Of a DNA stretch of 32,000 nt, positions 14,735 through 32,000 are shown in pieces. Position 1 is the stretch's first letter. Every line of letters begins with the position of its first letter. The stretch is from positions 270,001 through 302,000 of the forward strand of contig NZ_PQWO01000005.1 of NCBI RefSeq assembly GCF_003231495.1. Direction: 5' to 3'. The position numbers and the translations under genes were made by a program. Under the pieces are notes generated by a model. That model saw nothing but the letters and a program-made list of their open reading frames with translations, was not told the DNA's origin and did not search any database. The stretch is from Acaryochloris thomasi RCC1774. GTDB lineage: Bacteria > Cyanobacteriota > Cyanobacteriia > Thermosynechococcales > Thermosynechococcaceae.

Positions 14735-15169
14735 TTACAATACCCTCTGCAACTCCTTTTTCAAAAAGAAACGACTCCTCCCTTCGGGAAAATCTGGCAG
14801 TTCTCCAAAGACAACGTACCCACATTTTTGGTAGAAATCTGGAGCTTGAAAACTGAACGTATCTAAATAGGCATAACGGCAATCTTGCTTTATCGCCTCC
14901 TGTTCAGCAGTGCTTAGGAGAATGCTGCCATAGCCTCTTCTTCGAAAAGTCTCATGTACCCACAGCATGTCAACATGCAGCCACTGTCGAGAAGTTTCTC
15001 CTACTAAACCGCCTACCACCTGCTGCTCTGTATCTCTTAAAAAGATAGCCAAGCGCCGATAGTTGCTCTCACCTGCATGACTTCTGTTGAAATGGGTAAG
15101 CTGTTGCCCCACAAATTCGATTTCGTTGGGTTGCGGATCAAAAGCAACTTCGATTTTTAGGTCCACCAT
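14735..15169 (-). CDS. GNAT-family N-acetyltransferase
   Basis: 144 aa with an acetyl-CoA motif A region (LWVHETFRRRGYGSILL) and a C-terminal FY.K.GY motif. Confidence 0.8.
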   Translation of the reverse strand: MVDLKIEVAFDPQPNEIEFVGQQLTHFNRSHAGESNYRRLAIFLRDTEQQVVGGLVGETSRQWLHVDMLWVHETFRRRGYGSILLSTAEQEAIKQDCRYAYLDTFSFQAPDFYQKCGYVVFGELPDFPEGRSRFFLKKELQRVL

Positions 15170-19078: not shown

Positions 19079-19540
19079 TTAGAAACCATAGCGACGCCGT
19101 TCCTTTTTCGGGTCATGTGTCCAACAGTTACACCCATTTTCGTGAAAATACACGCTATCAATATCTGTTTTTATATGGACAGAGCAAGTGCATGGTTGAC
19201 CAAGAGCTGCCCTCCAATGGTGATATTGATGTTGATAAGGGACGTTGAAGCAAAATGTTACTTGTGCCTCTTTGAGCCAGCATTCTGGCATCCTATTCGA
19301 TGCCATCGCTCGATGCAGCGCCTGAGTTAGCAACTGGATAGCTGTGTTCAATGTTTCGCTACCTGCCTCTGGATGTACAGTATTCAATGTCAAATGTAGA
19401 ACTACTGTGTCTGTGTTGTTTTGCTCTGCAACGTTGTATAACTTTCCAATAGCCCAATACCCTTGCAAATCAAAGTTTCTACTGAGTGCCCATTGAGTGA
19501 GATTGTTCGCTATTCCCTTGAATTGCTTTCTCCGTGGCAT
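19079..19540 (-). CDS. Orphan hypothetical protein, Cys/His-rich C-terminal half, low-GC gene
   Basis: 153-aa ORF with no family I recognise. Two 60-nt lines counted by hand gave about 35-38% G+C, against about 55-60% in neighbouring genes. Confidence 0.5.
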   Translation of the reverse strand: MPRRKQFKGIANNLTQWALSRNFDLQGYWAIGKLYNVAEQNNTDTVVLHLTLNTVHPEAGSETLNTAIQLLTQALHRAMASNRMPECWLKEAQVTFCFNVPYQHQYHHWRAALGQPCTCSVHIKTDIDSVYFHENGCNCWTHDPKKERRRYGF

Positions 19541-25137: not shown

Positions 25138-26133
25138 GTGCAGGTATTTGTGACGGGGGCAACAGGATTTGTCGGCGCTAATTTAGTCCGGTTACTGCTC
25201 AAGCAGGGCTATCAGGTGCGCGTATTGGTTCGTCCCGAGAGCCTGAGAACGAATTTGCAAGATCTTGATGTCGAGATCGTCACGGGTGATTTACTTGACC
25301 CCGGCGTGGTCAAGCATCTGCGTGGCTGTCAGGTGCTGTTTCATGTGGCAGCCCACTACAGTCTTTGGCGGACGGAGCGAGATCAGCTCTACCGCAATAA
25401 TGTGCTGGGTACCCGCAATATTCTGAAGGCTGCACGCGATGCCAGCATTGAACGGACGGTTTATACCAGCTCTGTCGCGGCCATTGGGGTGCCAGACTCA
25501 GGGGCCATTGCCAATGAGACCTATCAAAGCTCCATTGAAAAACTGATTGGGGCCTACAAGCAGTCCAAGTATTTAGCTGAACAGGAGGCTTTCCACGCCA
25601 TCAGCATTGGTCAGGATATTGTGATCGTCAATCCCAGTACTCCCATCGGTCCTTGGGATCTAAAGCCCACGCCAACGGGAGATATGATTCTGCGGTTTCT
25701 CCGGCGTCAGATGCCTTTTTATCTGAATACGGGGCTGAATCTGATCCATGTGCGAGACGTTGCTCAGGGGCATCTATTAGCCCTGGAAAAAGGCAAAACT
25801 GGAGAGCGCTATATCCTTGGCAACCGCAACCTGACACTACAGGAAATTCTGGCGCAGCTCTCTGAGATTACGGGACTCCCAGAGCCGCGTAGTGGTCTGC
25901 CGGCCTGGATTCCGCTGACGGCTGCCTGGATTGATGAATGTGTGCTGGCTCCCTTGGGCAAAACGCCCTCTGTGCCTTTAGCTGGCGTAAAAATGGCGAA
26001 ACAGAAGATGTTTTATGACGCCTCTAAAGCCGTGCAGGATTTGGGACTGCCGCAGACCGATGTGAGGGTAGCGCTCCGTGAGGCCGTGGACTGGTTTATT
26101 CATCACGATTATGTGCCCAACTGGCAGGGCTAA
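25138..26133 (+). CDS. NAD-dependent epimerase/dehydratase, HpnA-like (hopanoid-associated sugar epimerase / dihydroflavonol reductase-like SDR)
   Basis: GTG start. The Rossmann motif is VFVTGATGFVGANLVRLLL and the catalytic motif is YKQSKYLAE (YxxxK). Overall it matches the cyanobacterial HpnA-like family as I remember it. Confidence 0.8.
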   Translation: MQVFVTGATGFVGANLVRLLLKQGYQVRVLVRPESLRTNLQDLDVEIVTGDLLDPGVVKHLRGCQVLFHVAAHYSLWRTERDQLYRNNVLGTRNILKAARDASIERTVYTSSVAAIGVPDSGAIANETYQSSIEKLIGAYKQSKYLAEQEAFHAISIGQDIVIVNPSTPIGPWDLKPTPTGDMILRFLRRQMPFYLNTGLNLIHVRDVAQGHLLALEKGKTGERYILGNRNLTLQEILAQLSEITGLPEPRSGLPAWIPLTAAWIDECVLAPLGKTPSVPLAGVKMAKQKMFYDASKAVQDLGLPQTDVRVALREAVDWFIHHDYVPNWQG

Positions 26134-27077
26134 CGCGCCTCGATTTTGTTCGCCAGCCGCTGCACTGCCCGCAGATAGGAGGTCTGACCCGGACGGTAGA
26201 TACGGTAATGGGTCCGGTCGGGGACGAGCAGCAATTCCTTTGGGGTTTGGGTTGGCGTTGCCTTATAGAGCTGTTCGCTCATAAAAGCCGGTACGATCTG
26301 ATCGGCGGTGCCGTGCAGGTAGAGAACGGGCATCTGGAGCGATCTCACCTTGGCAATGGAGTCAAACCGCTGGGTCAGCAATAGATCAATGGGCAATAGA
26401 TTCAGCCATTCGAACTGCTTGATCGCCGCTGACATCGAGGTAAAACTGCTCTGCACGATCAGACCCGCCGCCTGGGGCTGCTGCGTCGCCAGATCGATAG
26501 CAACTGCGCCGCCCATCGATTCGCCGTGGATCACGATCTGCTCTGGTAGAATTCTGCGAACCTGGGTTAAGTAGTGCCAAGCCGCTTGGCTATCTTGATA
26601 TAGATTTGCTTCGCTGGGCAGATCGCCGTCGCTATCACCGTAGCCACGATAGTCCACAAGCAGAACCGCAAACCCGAGCTGTCGGAGTCCTTTGGTTCTG
26701 GCGAGATGGCTGCGAGAGCTGCGATTGCCTCCCCTGCCCTTCAGCATTAGAACCACCATTGGCGATGAAAGGATGCGAGTCGGTTCGTTGGGGATCGCTT
26801 CAATGGCTTCATCTGCGGTGGGTGCTGGAATCCACCAGCCCTGCATTTGCTGCTGATCACCGACTGGAATCGTAATGTCTTCGTAGGGCAGTTTGAAGGT
26901 GGGGTCGTTGGGCAGTGTGGTGATGGGACGATTGGGGTCGAAGACGATGGTGCGCTGCTGCTGGAAAAGATAAAGGCAGAAGAGGATATATGCGATCGCA
27001 ACTCCCATTGACCCCATCAGCATCCATCGCGGCGCTAACCGACGTACTCGACCCACGAATTGGTAACCCTCAGACAA
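26130..27077 (-). CDS. Alpha/beta-fold hydrolase with an N-terminal membrane anchor
   Basis: The nucleophile elbow is GESMGGAVA. The N-terminal TM helix is MLMGSMGVAIAYILFCLYLF. A late HG.AD motif (LHGTADQIVP) is present. It converges on the epimerase gene with a 4-nt overlap. Confidence 0.8.
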   Translation of the reverse strand: MSEGYQFVGRVRRLAPRWMLMGSMGVAIAYILFCLYLFQQQRTIVFDPNRPITTLPNDPTFKLPYEDITIPVGDQQQMQGWWIPAPTADEAIEAIPNEPTRILSSPMVVLMLKGRGGNRSSRSHLARTKGLRQLGFAVLLVDYRGYGDSDGDLPSEANLYQDSQAAWHYLTQVRRILPEQIVIHGESMGGAVAIDLATQQPQAAGLIVQSSFTSMSAAIKQFEWLNLLPIDLLLTQRFDSIAKVRSLQMPVLYLHGTADQIVPAFMSEQLYKATPTQTPKELLLVPDRTHYRIYRPGQTSYLRAVQRLANKIEAR

Positions 27078-27287
27078 TGATAAAAGCTCAAGAGAAGCTG
27101 ACCCTAACGGTTTTGCCGTTGCCCCCTACGGCAAGAAAGACGGAGTAGATACCGCGAGAGTTCCCCCGCTCACAGGCATAGACTCCTGAAAATTATGACG
27201 TGTAGCCATCACTTCAAAAATATCGATAGCGTCCTGTGATTCACCATAGGAAGATTGCACTAATCCTTATGATTGCTTAGCTGCGCT

Positions 27288-27656
27288 CTAGTCTTCGACC
27301 ACTTGAGCTGTGACCTCAACCGCTTGGACATCGACTGTTCCTGGAGGAGTGGATCGCTTAAAATGCTGTCCTTCTACTTCAAGGCTCTCGCCGCATTGGG
27401 GACATTGGGTCACTCGATTTTTGAGTCCCACCGCCGCTGTGCCACAGGAAGGACAAGGTTCCTGCACCAGATTGCGATTGATCCACCAGCGAATGCCAAA
27501 GAAGGCAATGATGGGGGTGATGAACAATAGCGCCAGCAACACAAAGAAAGACTTCACCAGCCAGCCCAAGCCCACAACGCTGAGCAAGCAGATAAATGCG
27601 ATCGCAAACATCCACGAGCGCAAAGCTGGGAAATTAATAACGTAGCGCTGGTTCAC
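27288..27656 (-). CDS. Small membrane protein with a C-terminal zinc-ribbon (CPSC...CPQC)
   Basis: 122 aa with two TM helices, then CPSCGTAAVGLKNRVTQCPQCG. Confidence 0.6.
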   Translation of the reverse strand: MNQRYVINFPALRSWMFAIAFICLLSVVGLGWLVKSFFVLLALLFITPIIAFFGIRWWINRNLVQEPCPSCGTAAVGLKNRVTQCPQCGESLEVEGQHFKRSTPPGTVDVQAVEVTAQVVED

Positions 27657-27844
27657 AAAAGCCTCCTAAAGACCGCCAAGCTGGAGTTCACTATAGTTTA
27701 TTTTAACAAGCCCCCGTAGGGCGTCTATGCAGCAGCAGTACGGATCTCCGCTAGCTAGCCTTCGCTCTGGGCCTCAGCAAGTATTAAGATAAATCTTGTC
27801 ATTCTTTATCGGTCAAGCTCTTTCTGCCCTGTCACCCCAAATCT

Positions 27845-28648
27845 ATGGCTACTATCGACGATAAAACCATTGTTCAGAATTACTTCAATGCAGAAGGCTT
27901 CGACCGCTGGCGGCGCATCTATGGTGGCGGAGAGGTCAATAAGGTTCAGCTTGATATCCGGGAAGGCCATCAGCAGACCGTCGATACGGTTCTCGGCTGG
28001 TTCCGAGCCGACAATAATTTAGAGGGCCGCACCATTTGCGATGCTGGGTGTGGAGTCGGGAGCCTCAGCATTCCGCTGGCTCAAATGGGAGCCAAGGTTT
28101 CCGGCAGCGATATCTCGGCCAAAATGGTGGGTGAGGCCGAAGATAGAGCTAAACAGGCATTGGGAGAGGCCAATTTGCCGCAGTTCTCTGTGCAGGATTT
28201 GGAGCAGCTATCGGGACAGTATGACACCGTGGTCTGCCTCGACGTCTTGATTCACTATCCGCAGGAAAAAGCGGCGGAGATGATCAAGCACCTGAGTTCT
28301 TTGGCCACTAACCGGGTGATTTTGAGCTTCGCGCCTAAGACAGTGGCGTACACGCTGCTCAAAAAGGTGGGCGACTTCTTCCCTGGGCCGAGTAAAGCGA
28401 CGCGGGCCTATCTGCATCGAGAGCAGGATGTGGTGGCGGCTCTGCAGGCTGCAGGTTGGCAGGTGGAACGCACCGGCATGACCAAGACCAGCTTTTATTT
28501 CTCTCGGATATTGGAGGCTAAACGTCTCCCGGAGGGCGTGACTGCACCTGCTTCTACTATGGAGTCACAATCTTCTGCTACCCTAGCTTGGGCCATTTTT
28601 GTCTTGATCGCTGGGCTAGCTGCACTGGCCTTCTGGAGTGCTCTTTAA
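27845..28648 (+). CDS. chlM: Mg-protoporphyrin IX methyltransferase ChlM with a C-terminal extension of about 40 aa ending in a TM helix
   Basis: The N-terminus is YFNAEGFDRWRRIYG. The SAM motif is CDAGCGVGSLSIPLAQMGAKVSGSDIS. The tail is ...LPEGVTAPASTMESQSSATLAWAIFVLIAGLAALAFWSAL. Confidence 0.9.
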   Translation: MATIDDKTIVQNYFNAEGFDRWRRIYGGGEVNKVQLDIREGHQQTVDTVLGWFRADNNLEGRTICDAGCGVGSLSIPLAQMGAKVSGSDISAKMVGEAEDRAKQALGEANLPQFSVQDLEQLSGQYDTVVCLDVLIHYPQEKAAEMIKHLSSLATNRVILSFAPKTVAYTLLKKVGDFFPGPSKATRAYLHREQDVVAALQAAGWQVERTGMTKTSFYFSRILEAKRLPEGVTAPASTMESQSSATLAWAIFVLIAGLAALAFWSAL

Positions 28649-28657
28649 GCACCCAGA

Positions 28658-28789
28658 ATGTTTGATAATGTTTGCCGATTCTTGGCGGAAAATTTCACCA
28701 CGGATCTTGCAGCTGTTGGTGAGCCAATCGCTTTAACAGACCTCCAGCTCTCAGAACTGTCGCTAGAGCCAATTCGGGCAGAGGGCTAA
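28658..28789 (+). pseudogene. 43-codon remnant of an Rpn/YhgA-like (PD-(D/E)XK) recombination-promoting nuclease / putative transposase gene
   Basis: My own translation gives MFDNVCRFLAENFTTDLAAVGEPIALTDLQLSELSLEPIRAEG*. This matches the conserved N-terminus of the multicopy cyanobacterial family (MFDNVCKFLAE.F..DFA.WLLGEPI.LTEL.PSELSLEPIRAD..., from memory) but stops before the nuclease core. Confidence 0.55.
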
Positions 28790-28805
28790 TATTACTGTCT
28801 GCACT

Positions 28806-29342
28806 ATGACTCAGCTTTTCGAATTGCAGCCCTTTTTGTGTTCAAGCGCCCTATCCTCCATTCAGGTTAAGGGAGAGCTGACGCGCAACCCCGAATGCCT
28901 GCGTATCCGTTATGTTGTCGTTGATCCCTTGGGTGAGGTTGTGGCTTTGCCCCCTAGCGATGCGCCGTCTCGACAGGATGACCTGTGGGCAACCACCTGT
29001 TTGGAGCTCTTTTTTGGGCCGGCCGGTTCTGAGAATTACTGGGAGATCAACTTATCAACCGCTGGTCACTGGAATGTCTATCGGTTTGATGCCTATCGTT
29101 CCGGGATGCGGGAAGAAGCTTCTGTGACGGTCCTTCCCTTTAAGGTGGAACGCCCAGCCGGTCGACTACATTTGTCGCTAGACCTTGATCTAACGCTGCT
29201 TGGGATTGGGGAGGGGGAGTTGGAGGTTGCGATCGCAACCGTTCTCCAATCCAAAAACAACCTAATGAGCTACTGGGCACTGACGCATCCGGGGGCCGAA
29301 GCAGACTTCCATCGGCGGGATAGCTTCATCCTCAAAGCGTAA
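28806..29342 (+). CDS. DOMON-like / carbohydrate-binding-family-9-like domain protein
   Basis: 178 aa. The pattern LWATTCLELFFGP...NYWEINLSTAGHWNVYRFDAYR matches what I recall for cyanobacterial DOMON-like proteins. I have no motif-level proof. Confidence 0.5.
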   Translation: MTQLFELQPFLCSSALSSIQVKGELTRNPECLRIRYVVVDPLGEVVALPPSDAPSRQDDLWATTCLELFFGPAGSENYWEINLSTAGHWNVYRFDAYRSGMREEASVTVLPFKVERPAGRLHLSLDLDLTLLGIGEGELEVAIATVLQSKNNLMSYWALTHPGAEADFHRRDSFILKA

Positions 29343-29471
29343 ACACGATTTTCTGAAAGATTAACCCTCGATCGCTAGCAGGCAGAGGCAGTGATTCTAT
29401 TGCTCGTTTCGGTATTATCAGGGTAGCTGCTTCACCCGCTCCGTAAATTAGCCCACTTTGTGACACGTTAT

Positions 29472-30764
29472 ATGGCTCCAAGCGACCGATACGAGCGCTT
29501 TATGCAAGCATCCCGGAACCTGGGGCTGTTTCCATTATTGGCACCTCAAGAAATTGAAGACTTTAGGGTGCAGTATGGTCGTCGGACGTTAGCGCGCTTG
29601 AAGCAGGAGGTACAAGCCTCTGAAGCCAACGGCAAAGTCATCTTTACGGGACATCGGGGCTGTGGAAAATCAACGCTCCTGTACGAACTCAATATCTTGA
29701 TGCAAAAGCAGCAGCACTTTGTCGCGCTGTTTTCAATTGCTGACATGGTGGAAATGTCGGATGTTAACCACATCAATATTCTTTATGCTATTGCCTTGAC
29801 GCTGTTGAGCAAGGCTTCAAAAAGCGGCGTCTCTATTCCTGAGCCTACAAAAGAGCAGCTACTGAACTGGTTTATAACCACGAAGAGTGAGACATATACC
29901 GACCAATTCAAGCAGGAAGTGGGAGCGGGTGGCGATCTCTTAAGTTTCCTGTCTGCAAAGCTCAAAAAGGAAGATACGTTCCGAGAAGAGATCAAGATTA
30001 CCTTTGAGCGTCGCGTGTCTGAGTTGACCAATATGATCGATCGGATTGCTGCGGCAATTCAGGTCGCTACTAAAAAAGAAGTGTTGGTTATTATTGATGA
30101 TCTTGACAAGCTTGATTTGTCTGTTGTTGAAGCTATCTATCGGGATAATATCAACGCTCTTTTCTCGCCGAATATTCGCATAGTGTTCACCATTCCTATC
30201 TCTGTGGTCAGAGAGCCAAGGCTGTTGGCAACTTTGCAATCTTTTTGTCAGATTGTTCTGTTATCGGTCACAAAGTTTTATCCTCAAGACCAAGCGCATC
30301 TACCCAACGGTAAAGCCATTGCCGAGAATGTTGAGATCTTGCAAAAAATCTTGGCAAAACGCATCCCTCAGGATTTGATTGACCCCAATGTGATGCAGCA
30401 ATTGGTGCTGTTGAGTGGTGGCGTGTTGCGAGAACTGATCCGCTTAGGGCAAGAATGCTGCCGTGAATGCATGCTGGAGCTAGAGCTGGAGCCAGATCAG
30501 CCTGATTTGGTGATCAATACGGACATTCTAGATTCAGCCGTCAAAACGTTGCGGAATCAGTTCGCTCGCAGTTTAGGGAGCGAACTCTATGATCTGTTGG
30601 TGAAGATTTACGCAGGCTTTACGCCACCCGATGCTCGGAGTCCAGAATTTCTAGAATTGCTGCATGGGCTCTATGTTTTGGAATATGAGAATGATGATTT
30701 ATGGTATGACCTGCATCCATTTGTGACTGATTTATTACAACGCAAGAAGTTGTTGACGCCATAG
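29472..30764 (+). CDS. Stand-alone P-loop NTPase, AAA+ Orc1/Cdc6- or STAND-like (no repeat or effector domain of its own)
   Basis: Walker A is GHRGCGKST (29649-29675), Walker B is VLVIIDDLDKLD and a sensor-1-like strand is RIVFTIP. The lid-like segment LQKILAKRI...GGVLRELIRLGQEC is reminiscent of Orc1/Cdc6 (..IL..R...GDAR.A..LL). The start is ATG 29472, or GTG 29460 as in the ORF track. The gene is AT-rich. Confidence 0.75.
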   Translation: MAPSDRYERFMQASRNLGLFPLLAPQEIEDFRVQYGRRTLARLKQEVQASEANGKVIFTGHRGCGKSTLLYELNILMQKQQHFVALFSIADMVEMSDVNHINILYAIALTLLSKASKSGVSIPEPTKEQLLNWFITTKSETYTDQFKQEVGAGGDLLSFLSAKLKKEDTFREEIKITFERRVSELTNMIDRIAAAIQVATKKEVLVIIDDLDKLDLSVVEAIYRDNINALFSPNIRIVFTIPISVVREPRLLATLQSFCQIVLLSVTKFYPQDQAHLPNGKAIAENVEILQKILAKRIPQDLIDPNVMQQLVLLSGGVLRELIRLGQECCRECMLELELEPDQPDLVINTDILDSAVKTLRNQFARSLGSELYDLLVKIYAGFTPPDARSPEFLELLHGLYVLEYENDDLWYDLHPFVTDLLQRKKLLTP

Positions 30765-30772
30765 GTGCTGTC

Positions 30773-32000
30773 ATGGTGATGCAAACAGAATTAAGTTCTC
30801 TCAATCAGCGCGAACTGACCAAGCTAGTGCTTTCGATTCGGGCCAGTGTGCAGAAGCTCGATTTGTTTTTAGCGATTTGTGATCATCGCGATCTTCGAGA
30901 AACGCTTATCCACGAATATGAAACGACTCTTTCTGATCAGGGGATTACCCCCTATCGAACGGGACTTAATCCCAAGGCCCCTAGCCTCAAAGTAGCCTTA
31001 GAGACGTTAGTCAGCTGTAACCCGGCCCTTAAATCAGAGGTCTCTGCCGTAGTGACCGTTCTGGGGGCGTCGCAGTTGTTTGAGGTCCGCTTAGCTGAGG
31101 ATAAGTCTGAACAGGAAAAGTTTTTTTTCTCGCTGCAGTGGACTCGGGAATCCCTACGGCAATTCGATTTCCCGGTGGTGATTTGGTTGTCTGATGCTGT
31201 CGCTACGGGTTTAGCCAAGCAGGCACCCGATTTCTGGAGCTGGCGCAGTGGGGTTTTTGAGTTTGAAGCTAATAAGAGTGAAATTGACCAAACTTTCTAC
31301 CCTGTGCCATCAGGCCATCATGTCTCCAGTGAACAGAATCTAGACAACCAGGCAGCTCGTAAAATCGAAGACTTAAAGCAACAAATTGCTGAGCTACGTC
31401 ACCAAAATCAGCAATCTCCCCTTTTGACAACGCTCTATCGCAACCTAGGAGATGCCTATCATCAGCAGGCAGCCTATGCGTTAGCCCTTGATGCTTACGA
31501 ACAGGTACTCAAACAGGCAAGGATTCATAAGCAGCGCTCAACAGAAGCTGAGACTTTTTTCAAACTGGGAGGCATACTCCTCGATTGCCGACGCTATCAA
31601 TCAGTGCGGACTTATTACCAACAAGCCCTCGAGATCGCTATTGAAACCAATAATCGTAATCTACAAGCTATCACCTTCCATCAGCTAGGCATAGTTGCCC
31701 AACAGCTACGAGAATATGAGCAAGCTCGTGCCTATTACCAACAAGCTCTCAATATCGAGATCGAAACCAATAATCGTAATGGACAAGCGATCACCAACCA
31801 CCAGTTAGGTATAGTGGCCCAACAGTTGCGGGAATATGAGCGAGCTTGTGCCTATTACCAACAAGCTCTCAATATTGAGATCGAAACTAATAATCGCAAT
31901 GTACAAGCAAGCACCTACCATCAGCTAGGCATGGTGGCCGAAGAGCTACGAGAACATGAGAAAGCCCGTGCTTATTACCAACAAGCCCTCAAGATCGCCA
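30773..32000 (+). CDS. Protein with an unassigned N-terminal domain (about 165 aa), a coiled-coil linker and an array of 40-aa TPR-like repeats; 3' end truncated by the window edge
   Basis: It is absent from the ORF track because it is open at the right edge. My own translation from ATG 30773 gives MVMQTELSSLNQRELTKLVLSIRASVQKLDLFLAICDHRDLRETLIHEYE...PDFWSWRSGVFEFE...KIEDLKQQIAELRHQNQQ... followed by repeated YYQQAL.I.IETNNRN.QA.T.HQLG.VA..LRE.E.A.A units. It starts 8 nt after the ATPase stop. Confidence 0.8.
   Translation, partial: MVMQTELSSLNQRELTKLVLSIRASVQKLDLFLAICDHRDLRETLIHEYETTLSDQGITPYRTGLNPKAPSLKVALETLVSCNPALKSEVSAVVTVLGASQLFEVRLAEDKSEQEKFFFSLQWTRESLRQFDFPVVIWLSDAVATGLAKQAPDFWSWRSGVFEFEANKSEIDQTFYPVPSGHHVSSEQNLDNQAARKIEDLKQQIAELRHQNQQSPLLTTLYRNLGDAYHQQAAYALALDAYEQVLKQARIHKQRSTEAETFFKLGGILLDCRRYQSVRTYYQQALEIAIETNNRNLQAITFHQLGIVAQQLREYEQARAYYQQALNIEIETNNRNGQAITNHQLGIVAQQLREYERACAYYQQALNIEIETNNRNVQASTYHQLGMVAEELREHEKARAYYQQALKIA
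31493..32000 (+). repeat. Tandem 120-bp (40-codon) repeats inside the TPR gene
   Basis: Unit boundaries fall at 31493 (divergent unit), 31613, 31733, 31853 and 31973, each beginning TATTACCAACAAGC. I counted about 20 mismatches in 120 between units 31613 and 31733. Confidence 0.85.

Follow-up and report, generated by a model that had tools for sequence, protein, structure and literature searches.

A conserved operonic pair of a P-loop ATPase and a putative pseudo-ATPase/TPR protein in Acaryochloris thomasi and other cyanobacteria

The cyanobacterium Acaryochloris thomasi RCC1774 carries, at the end of the 32,000-nucleotide stretch of contig NZ_PQWO01000005.1 analysed here (positions 270,001 to 302,000; hereafter the window), two adjacent genes on the same strand. 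Gene 1 encodes a stand-alone P-loop ATPase of 430 residues, and gene 2 encodes a protein in which an N-terminal domain (N-domain) precedes an array of tetratricopeptide repeats (TPRs). This module is strongly conserved and so far unnamed, and its split architecture is real; a role in biological conflict is unproven. The two proteins are probably the halves of one nucleotide-driven assembly, a split switch of AAA+/STAND-like type whose active ATPase would dock on a pseudo-ATPase/TPR scaffold. The evidence for this reading comprises the domain identities of the two proteins, the loss of catalytic motifs from the N-domain, near-obligate operon linkage, co-divergence, and variant loci in which the domains are fused.

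The ATPase encoded by gene 1

Gene 1 and its principal motifs are located as follows.

29472..30764, + strand: gene 1, a stand-alone P-loop ATPase of 430 residues in the KAP / Orc1-Cdc6 / STAND neighbourhood (open reading frame and structural model)
29649..29675, + strand: Walker A motif or P-loop GHRGCGKST, residues 60-68 (alignment of 20 orthologues)
30081..30116, + strand: Walker B motif VLVIIDDLDKLD, residues 204-215 (alignment and model strand 203-209)
30177..30215, + strand: strand beta-4 with the sensor-1-like Thr240, then Arg247 (model strand 236-242, helix 243-247)
30414..30470, + strand: lid helix SGGVLRELIRLGQECCREC, residues 315-333 (alignment; model helix 319-339)
30660..30719, + strand: LHGLYVLEYENDDLWYDLHP, residues 397-416, the most conserved C-terminal motif (alignment)

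The ATG at 29472 is preferred as the start of gene 1 over an alternative GTG at 29460 because residues 2-10 align with the orthologues; the stop codon is TAG. The product is 100% identical to the hypothetical protein C1752_02131 of A. thomasi RCC1774. Homologues across cyanobacterial orders are 50-89% identical to the window protein, and the 20 orthologues chosen for alignment (55-89% identity) have a mean column identity of 68%. An initial annotation of the window, made from the sequence alone, had recognized an ATPase of this length with intact Walker A and Walker B motifs. Both motifs are found, and their core residues are invariant in the 20 orthologues: G60, H61, G63, C64, G65, K66, and T68 in Walker A, and L205, V206, D209, D210, L211, K213, and L214 in Walker B. 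Among distant representatives of the family the predominant P-loop is GH.G[CS]GK[ST]. Thr240 lies at the end of strand 4 and is invariant together with I241, P242, I243, and R247; Arg247 is a candidate box-VII arginine finger. The lid helix, with the motif SGGVLRE..R, has nine invariant residues (S315, G316, G317, R320, E321, R324, C329, C330, and C333), and R320 and R324 are candidate sensor-2 arginines.

Four cysteines of gene 1 are also invariant among the orthologues. Cys64 (29661-29663) is part of Walker A, and a CC..C cluster, Cys329/330/333 (30456-30470, ECCRECM), is found in the lid helix. These residues could form a redox- or metal-sensitive site beside the nucleotide pocket. The position of Cys64 is often occupied by Ser among distant representatives.

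The AlphaFold model of gene 1 (mean predicted local distance difference test score, pLDDT, 81.6) has a five-strand alpha/beta core, a lid, and a C-terminal helical region. An all-helical insert of about 100 residues (100-200) separates strand 2 from Walker B; by eye inspection only, no long hydrophobic (membrane-spanning) stretch was seen in it. Nearly all residues of the C-terminal motif LHGLYVLEYENDDLWYDLHP are invariant, including His415 within WYDLHP, which may be analogous to the MHD/LHD motif of STAND proteins. In those proteins a nucleotide-binding, a helical, and a winged-helix domain follow one another, and a conserved His contacts the nucleotide. The motif of gene 1 looks like the wing of a winged helix; the pLDDT of this region is 47-65, so the fold of the C-terminal part is uncertain.

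Foldseek places archaeal Cdc6/Orc1 proteins first among structural matches of the model (2qby_A, E = 1.9e-6, template-modelling (TM) scores 0.43/0.50; 1fnn_A, E = 7e-6), followed by subunits of the origin recognition complex (ORC), RdrA of the RADAR system, TnsC, RuvB, and DnaA, with TM-scores of about 0.4. The best Pfam matches of the sequence (G-alpha, AAA_16, AAA_22, NACHT, NTPase_1, DAP3, nSTAND3, ATPase_2, ORC-CDC6-like, and KAP_NTPase) all fall under their gathering scores. NACHT reaches 23.8 bits (cut-off 26.7), nSTAND3 19.1 (27.2), KAP (PF07693) 17.2 (20), and ORC-CDC6-like 17.2 (27). NACHT is matched by 20 of 20 orthologues, but only at E >= 3e-8 and beside generic AAA models, and neither window protein matches nSTAND2 in Pfam at E <= 1. 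In NCBIfam the 'Sll1717 family P-loop ATPase' model comes closest, with 34 bits where 75 are required; the IstB model scores 16.5 bits against a cut-off of 200, and the Orc/Cdc6 models of NCBIfam give zero matches. The sole match of a single-sequence search of the PDB is 8fnu (E = 0.04), deposited as a KAP NTPase domain-containing protein, and a sequence-profile search of the PDB returns only THEP1 (1ye8, E = 1e-3) and DnaC. Some relatives exceed the KAP threshold of 20 bits (P0273, 34.0; P0171, 31.8; P0190, 25.8). With the leading structural matches to Cdc6/Orc1 and the weak profile matches to NACHT and nSTAND3, the earlier label 'Orc1/Cdc6- or STAND-like' was a fair one. Gene 1 thus appears to encode a divergent AAA+-like NTPase of the KAP / Orc1-Cdc6 / STAND neighbourhood, whose predicted catalytic competence is read from its intact motifs. 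An exhaustive profile search recovers 3263 cluster representatives of the family at E <= 1e-3 and 371 at E <= 1e-30. Of the 150 best-scoring among the 3263, nearly all are stand-alone ATPases of about 430 residues, and the length in the family is almost always about 405-440 residues.

The N-terminal domain of gene 2

Gene 2 extends to the end of the window and is divided into the following regions.

30765..30772, + strand: spacer of 8 nucleotides from the gene 1 stop codon to the gene 2 ATG
30773..31282, + strand: N-domain (residues 1 to about 170), read from the structural model and Foldseek as an alpha/beta core of degenerate AAA+/P-loop-like type
30857..30892, + strand: P-loop-equivalent site LDLFLAICDHRD, residues 29-40 (model strand 31-36, helix 39-55)
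31223..31264, + strand: signature motif APDFWSWRSGVFEF, residues 151-164, directly before and within the last strand
31283..31417, + strand: linker of varying length and sequence, residues about 171-215, with a putative short coiled coil
31418..32000, + strand: TPR array (Pfam TPR_12), residues about 216 onward, incomplete at the window end

As the initial annotation had it, the second gene opens 8 nucleotides past the stop codon: its ATG at 30773 follows the TAG of gene 1 at exactly that distance. The reading frame is still open at 32000, 409 codons in. The N-domain had been called unassigned, and at the level of sequence families this stands: residues 1-170 of the window protein fall outside every family of Pfam, NCBIfam, and PADLOC, and none of 31 members (the window protein and 30 homologues) has a Pfam match on the domain. 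The structural model, however, gives it a recognizable fold. It is an alpha/beta domain with five strands (pLDDT 85.9), and its Foldseek matches are ORC2 of Aeropyrum pernix (1w5t, E = 1.5e-5), TnsC of Tn6677 (7rzy, TM-score 0.64), CbbX, ORC subunits, and IstB.

The positions at which an active AAA+ protein would bind and hydrolyse nucleotide are eroded. The P-loop-equivalent site LDLFLAICDHRD (LAICDHRD) has no glycine-rich loop, no lysine, and no GK[ST]; A34, C36, and D37 are nearly invariant. The strand corresponding to Walker B reads VVTVLG and lacks an acidic pair. Because the model fold is AAA+-like and the glycine-rich loop, the lysine, and the acidic pair are all missing, the N-domain is read as a degenerate, catalytically dead AAA+/P-loop core, that is, a predicted 'pseudo-ATPase'. 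The domain is otherwise well conserved in alignment, with recurrent LxLLxAxCDD, PSL, VVTVLG, LQWTRE, and FPxVxW motifs in addition to APDFWSWRSGVFEF. In the latter, A151, D153, F154, and W155 are invariant, and S156, W157, R158, G160, F162, and F164 reach a conservation of 90% or more. Arg158 of its WRSG is a candidate trans-acting arginine finger; R-x-G-x-F-[DE], just before the last strand of the N-domain, would occupy the place in the second region of homology at which classical AAA proteins have their arginine fingers. The motif is kept in the distant pairs L085 and L087, and Arg158 is gone in a third, L088.

An origin of the N-domain by duplication of the ATPase gene was considered and rejected, since hhalign finds no similarity between the ATPase profile and the N-domain profile (probability 0.3%). 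The N-domain alignment, searched against the PDB by sequence profile, returns TPR matches only.

Pairing of the two genes across genomes

When one genome per species was scanned, relatives of the ATPase turned up at no fewer than 498 loci, from which 80 were kept, all 80 cyanobacterial. A gene for the N-domain, sought with tblastn, is present downstream of the ATPase gene and on the same strand in 75 of the 80. In four of the five loci without it, fewer than 210 nucleotides of sequence follow the ATPase gene, which leaves 76 informative loci. The lone true exception, L082 (5640-6789), has no gene 2 and keeps a TPR_12-like fragment. The spacer between the genes has a median of 23 nucleotides over the 75 loci, and overlaps of 1 or 4 nucleotides are frequent. 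The same linkage is found in the distant members P0191, P0184, and P0300, the three that were looked up, whose ATPases score 168-277 bits against the ATPase profile and in which the N-domain gene begins within 5 nucleotides of the ATPase stop codon. The initial annotation had made its case depend on homologues of the two genes being neighbours in other genomes, and this they are, in 75 of 76 informative loci as well as in the three distant members. From the linkage in the cyanobacterial loci and in these distant members, and from the fusion variants described below, it follows that the N-domain is a dedicated companion of the gene 1 ATPase family.

Pairwise identities of the ATPase and of the N-domain are correlated (r = 0.84, Mantel p = 0.001), which speaks for co-inheritance, not for contact. 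Among the kept loci the maximum is two pairs per assembly, a number reached in three assemblies. The module occurs patchily and chiefly in filamentous cyanobacteria. All-against-all clustering of the flanking open reading frames (ORFs) of the 80 loci yields no third conserved gene family. The view of the module as a split NTPase/TPR operonic pair is correct insofar as the genes are separate and linked; it is incomplete in that the partner carries a core of its own, the putative pseudo-ATPase. A pair made of an active ATPase and a pseudo-ATPase/TPR protein would therefore be more than a STAND protein cut in two.

Variant and rearranged loci

The order of domains departs from the usual arrangement in several loci. 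At L089 (4715-7758) and L090 (86-3150), the second gene encodes an N-domain fused to a second ATPase of the family, without TPRs; Walker A and Walker B of this second ATPase are intact, and the ATPase gene overlaps the second gene by 4 nucleotides. At L050 (2377-6359), two tandem ATPase genes precede the N-domain-TPR gene. L074 has two N-domain genes. At L017 (8309-9682), a 457-residue transposase-like ORF on the opposite strand is inserted between gene 1 and gene 2. A protein of 811 residues from a single Logan contig, P0182, is an in-frame chimera: ATPase residues 1-245 run into the latter half of the N-domain, which an extended TPR array follows. Apparently either a deletion has joined both genes or the contig is an assembly artefact. 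The distant member P0273 (L086 55-1719) bears an N-terminal TIR_2 domain (E = 5.5e-24), and the gene downstream of it encodes a CxxC-rich protein of 168 residues, not an N-domain. Some 1.2 kb upstream of the distant ATPase/N-domain pair at L088 (357-2876) is a gene for a restriction enzyme of the Eco57I/BsuBI-PstI type; no other defence-like neighbour was seen.

The linker, the TPR array, and the C-terminus of gene 2

The sole conserved feature of the linker is a DLxQQIxxL-like stretch. The repeats of about 40 residues reported in the initial annotation are genuine TPRs: TPR_12 scores 100.7 bits (cut-off 30.1, E = 5.2e-29), and TPR_1, TPR_2, TPR_7, TPR_8, and TPR_10 also pass their thresholds. 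In the DNA the units form a tandem repeat with a period of 120 bp and 83% matches (31613-31997), and a like 120-bp TPR repeat occurs in the closest relative (L005 9135-9676). Such near-identity implies recent duplication or homogenisation of units and is a likely cause of fragmented or partial TPR gene calls in metagenome assemblies.

Complete gene 2 orthologues range from 344 to 795 residues, with a median of 578. The closest relatives measure 498-500 (L004/L005) and 522 residues (L007), and for this reason the window's gene 2 very probably lacks its last 90-110 residues or so, consisting of more TPR and a tail. The gene 2 of the closest relative, 498 residues as called on its contig, ends after the TPRs and a short conserved tail, and a convergent methyltransferase gene follows. 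The C-termini of 59 complete orthologues take one of three forms: TPR, a short conserved tail, or a hydrophobic tail anchor, the last in at least 10 of the 59. The tail-anchor clade (L018, L025, L026, L031, L038, L042, L045, L047, L048, and L071) ends in a conserved linker, ..APTIGE..PDWL.KS.P.., and a hydrophobic stretch of about 20 residues; the clade of the window's gene 2 ends instead in an LARFY..PDD..AQ.LN tail. The hydrophobic stretch suggests that these orthologues are tail-anchored, membrane-tethered TPR proteins. An effector had been expected past the window end. The complete orthologues do not bear this out, for they contain only the N-domain, the linker, the TPRs, and sometimes the hydrophobic tail, with no effector domain, and no third conserved gene accompanies the pair.

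Genomic setting and base composition

Two further features lie upstream of the module.

29343..29471, + strand: upstream intergenic region, the expected site of the operon promoter
28658..28789: ORF of 43 residues, previously labelled a nuclease/transposase remnant (scanned against Pfam and NCBIfam)

A consensus scan finds no sigma-70-like site on the + strand of 29343..29471 and one site on the - strand only. Rfam has no match in 26000-32000, and the promoter and terminator scans are likewise uninformative. Upstream lie chlM (BchM-ChlM match, E = 2.7e-79), a 178-residue ORF with at most a faint CBM9-like match, and the 43-residue ORF, all unrelated to the module. The identification of the 43-residue ORF as a nuclease/transposase remnant found no backing in Pfam or NCBIfam, which give zero matches even at permissive thresholds; its ELS.EPIRA stretch may resemble cyanobacterial Rpn-family putative transposases.

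Gene 1 has a G+C content of 46.0% and gene 2 of 47.5%, against a mean of 52.2% (standard deviation 3.2) for the other 27 genes of the window, so the module lies about 1.5-1.9 standard deviations under the gene mean. The module had been called AT-rich, and both genes are indeed below the mean, but the contrast is mild and was overstated by the hand counts of 33-48% against 60%. Two other window genes, at 14735-15169 (-) and 19079-19540 (-), are lower still, with G+C contents of 45.1% and 43.7% and third-position G+C of 44% and 42%. Horizontal transfer was rejected as an inference from composition, given the small deviation and these two genes.

Relation to known systems

STAND/NLR-like NTPases (MalT, AfsR, Avs, and bNACHT type) combine, like the pair, a P-loop NTPase with a helical lid, a small C-terminal domain, and a TPR array; in both, the NTPase is conserved and the repeat array variable, and the pair is weakly similar to the NACHT, NPHP3_N, and nSTAND3 hidden Markov models. 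Scores against the curated STAND models of Pfam (NACHT, NB-ARC, nSTAND1-6) are nevertheless all sub-threshold. The one-polypeptide layout of NTPase, sensor repeats, and effector is absent as well: the ATPase stands alone, the TPRs are encoded by the next gene in a protein with its own degenerate P-loop core, and there is no effector domain. Gene 1 also differs in its AAA+-type sensor-1 Thr and lid arginines.

KAP NTPases (PF07693), which include RdrA of RADAR and PifA, resemble gene 1 in a long helical insertion between Walker A and Walker B. Transmembrane helices inserted into the NTPase domain are typical of the family. Structurally, RdrA ranks with the best matches of gene 1, and the KAP protein 8fnu is its only single-sequence match in the PDB; yet the gathering score of the family is not reached (17.2 against 20 bits), and the partner is a putative pseudo-ATPase/TPR protein rather than an RdrB-type deaminase. 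Orc1/Cdc6 and ORC proteins provide the best structural matches of both proteins (2qby_A and 1fnn_A for gene 1, 1w5t for gene 2), with modest TM-scores, and offer a parallel in concept, the combination of active and inactive AAA+ protomers. By contrast, there is no homology at the level of sequence (17.2 against 27 bits and no match to an Orc/Cdc6 model of NCBIfam for gene 1), and the pair's pseudo-ATPase consists of the core domain only, followed by TPRs.

The closest concept, from a different family, is the nSTAND2 two-gene system. Kaur, Iyer, Burroughs, and Aravind (2021; PMC8195603) describe an operon of an active and an inactive STAND NTPase, for which a hetero-oligomer is proposed. According to the same survey, the inactive protein, with eroded NTP-binding motifs, carries GT4 or HEPN effectors, and the operon is mobile (PMC8195603). 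Inactive STAND modules named iSTAND and iSTAND2 also appear in the surveys of this laboratory (PMC8195603). As portrayed there, the likeness lies in a two-gene operon with one active NTPase and one eroded NTPase bearing a variable module. In the present pair, by contrast, the inactive partner is a core domain followed by TPRs, the operon is located on chromosomes and conserved widely, and all nSTAND models of Pfam stay below threshold; with no nSTAND2 match at E <= 1, membership in that system was rejected. In the Aravind-lab papers on conflict systems, including a 2020 paper (PMC7159879), no matching pair was found under the terms used.

A cyanobacterial pair with a similar operon logic, a TPR gene downstream of a partner gene, is known from Anabaena PCC 7120. 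Springstein et al. (2020; PMC7002697) report that the TPR protein All4981 (about 650 residues) is co-transcribed with the upstream gene all4982, which it overlaps by 4 nucleotides (ATGA), that it binds the All4982 product, and that it forms filaments. The primer-derived N-terminus of All4981 (MNSELFQKLAKA), its C-terminus, and an internal fragment of All4982 differ from the invariant motifs of the present family, and no Nostoc PCC 7120 protein is among the top 120 matches of a search with a Nostoc query. With these mismatches and no PCC 7120 match, orthology to the pair was rejected as unproven, not as disproved.

Proposed mechanism and its alternatives

In the split switch that we consider probable, the N-domain would dock on the gene 1 ATPase as a non-catalytic protomer, forming a hetero-oligomer by analogy with the inactive subunits of ORC and clamp loaders. 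The arginine of its WRSG motif may enter the active site of gene 1. ATP binding and hydrolysis by gene 1 would then set the oligomeric or conformational state of the TPR platform, which, as scaffold or sensor, would bind a partner or ligand; in some lineages a C-terminal hydrophobic tail may tether the platform to the membrane.

Several points weigh against this mechanism. The AAA+ assignment of the N-domain comes from predicted structure with modest TM-scores (0.47-0.64), and at the sequence level no similarity of the domain to gene 1 or to an AAA+ family could be detected. In the distant homologue L088 another residue stands in place of the candidate arginine finger. The C-terminal domain of gene 1 is modelled at low confidence. 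Operon linkage and co-divergence are equally expected for any co-inherited pair, and the module has no recognizable output domain.

It is possible, though on balance not favoured, that the pair is a housekeeping or cell-biological factor, for example an ATP-dependent system that assembles or chaperones a membrane or photosynthetic complex, or a TPR scaffold of cytoskeletal kind that the ATPase loads or remodels. Both genes are highly conserved and co-inherited, their copies are chromosomal only, and genes of housekeeping function, such as chlM, dnaX, isocitrate dehydrogenase, and queF, surround them in the window, L001, and L004. The hydrophobic tail anchors of gene 2 orthologues suggest a membrane location, and All4981/All4982 provide a precedent (PMC7002697). 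Yet homology to the Anabaena proteins is not established, the pair is not universal, as the lack of a PCC 7120 protein among the top 120 matches illustrates, and no conserved neighbour gene indicates a pathway. The variable number of TPRs and the TIR-fused relatives fit a sensor better.

Such a sensor is the substance of a second alternative, rather unlikely in our estimate, in which the pair is a split NLR/STAND-type anti-phage or conflict system: the TPRs would recognize an invader protein, the ATPase would oligomerise, and growth arrest or death would follow through a remote effector or the assembly itself. The family lies near the KAP, NACHT, and nSTAND models and has RdrA as a structural neighbour. 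Its conserved NTPase and diversifying repeats (units 83% alike, gene 2 of 344-795 residues) follow the pattern of NLR-like sensors, its distribution is patchy, and the active/inactive nSTAND2 operon, as the survey outlines it, is a precedent (PMC8195603). The best matches in PADLOC-DB v2 are PtuA (E = 4.4e-5 over 30 residues), PifA (7e-4), AriA, and generic TPR models. Against a sensor of this kind, neither protein has an effector domain and no conserved third gene is found. The PADLOC matches are sub-family P-loop or TPR noise, neither window protein has a full-length match to a system-specific PADLOC model, and cognate partner genes are absent from the flanks of the 80 loci. Searches of plasmids and phages found no copies of the module. 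The housekeeping neighbourhoods, the at most two pairs per assembly, and an ATPase that is 50-89% identical across orders, with a mean column identity of 68%, also differ from expectation, such conservation being unusual for an immune gene. The hints of conflict are limited to distant relatives, namely the TIR fusion of P0273, which lacks an N-domain partner, and the single pair beside a restriction enzyme gene. The earlier proposal of a candidate conflict system thus loses ground, and the PADLOC comparison suggested alongside it returned weak sub-family matches only. For the cyanobacterial clade we rate a conflict role somewhat below one in cellular regulation or assembly, and we lean slightly toward the latter.

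A DNA-acting AAA+ protein of transposition or replication (a TnsC/TniB/IstB-like selector or an Orc1/Cdc6-like initiator) with the TPR protein as accessory is very improbable: the structural or profile matches of both proteins do include TnsC, IstB, DnaC, DnaA, and Orc/Cdc6, and the gene 1 C-terminus looks like a winged helix, but matches to the IstB, ORC-CDC6, and DnaA-type models fall far under their thresholds, the module is stably inherited without plasmid or phage copies, and no conserved transposase, TniQ, or integrase is nearby, the only transposase being the insertion that interrupts L017. No transposase/TniQ/TnsD family recurs in the flanks of the 80 loci, and the classes of Tn7/Tn5053-type TnsC/TniB and of IS21 IstB within a transposon were rejected for the pair. 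The initial annotation had named a TniB/TnsC in an intact transposon as fatal to its proposal; neither a transposase nor any other third family recurs beside the ATPase, and a transposition role is largely refuted by the neighbourhood analysis.

Significance

Neither the ATPases, with over 3000 cluster representatives, nor their partner domain of some 170 residues has a family of its own in Pfam, NCBIfam, or PADLOC, and the database labels of the two proteins are merely 'P-loop NTPase fold protein' and 'tetratricopeptide repeat protein'. The recognition that a putatively dead AAA+-like core is locked in an operon with an active ATPase, both within the cyanobacteria and outside them, makes a tractable two-component system of what were two anonymous genes. 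Tentatively, the pair might represent an undescribed, phylum-wide class of split NLR-like receptors, in which the dead AAA+ core and the fast-diversifying TPRs sense a ligand, co-assemble with the conserved ATPase, and signal through the assembly itself, without a fused effector. Such receptors could be immune, given the TIR-fused relatives, or they could form a cyanobacterium-specific regulatory machine, perhaps redox-gated through Cys64 and Cys329/330/333. If true, STAND/AAA+ sensors would gain a new principle of organisation. An immune role of the pair would extend NLR-like logic to a format that is split and has no effector; as a cellular machine, the pair would be a new conserved component of cyanobacterial cell biology.

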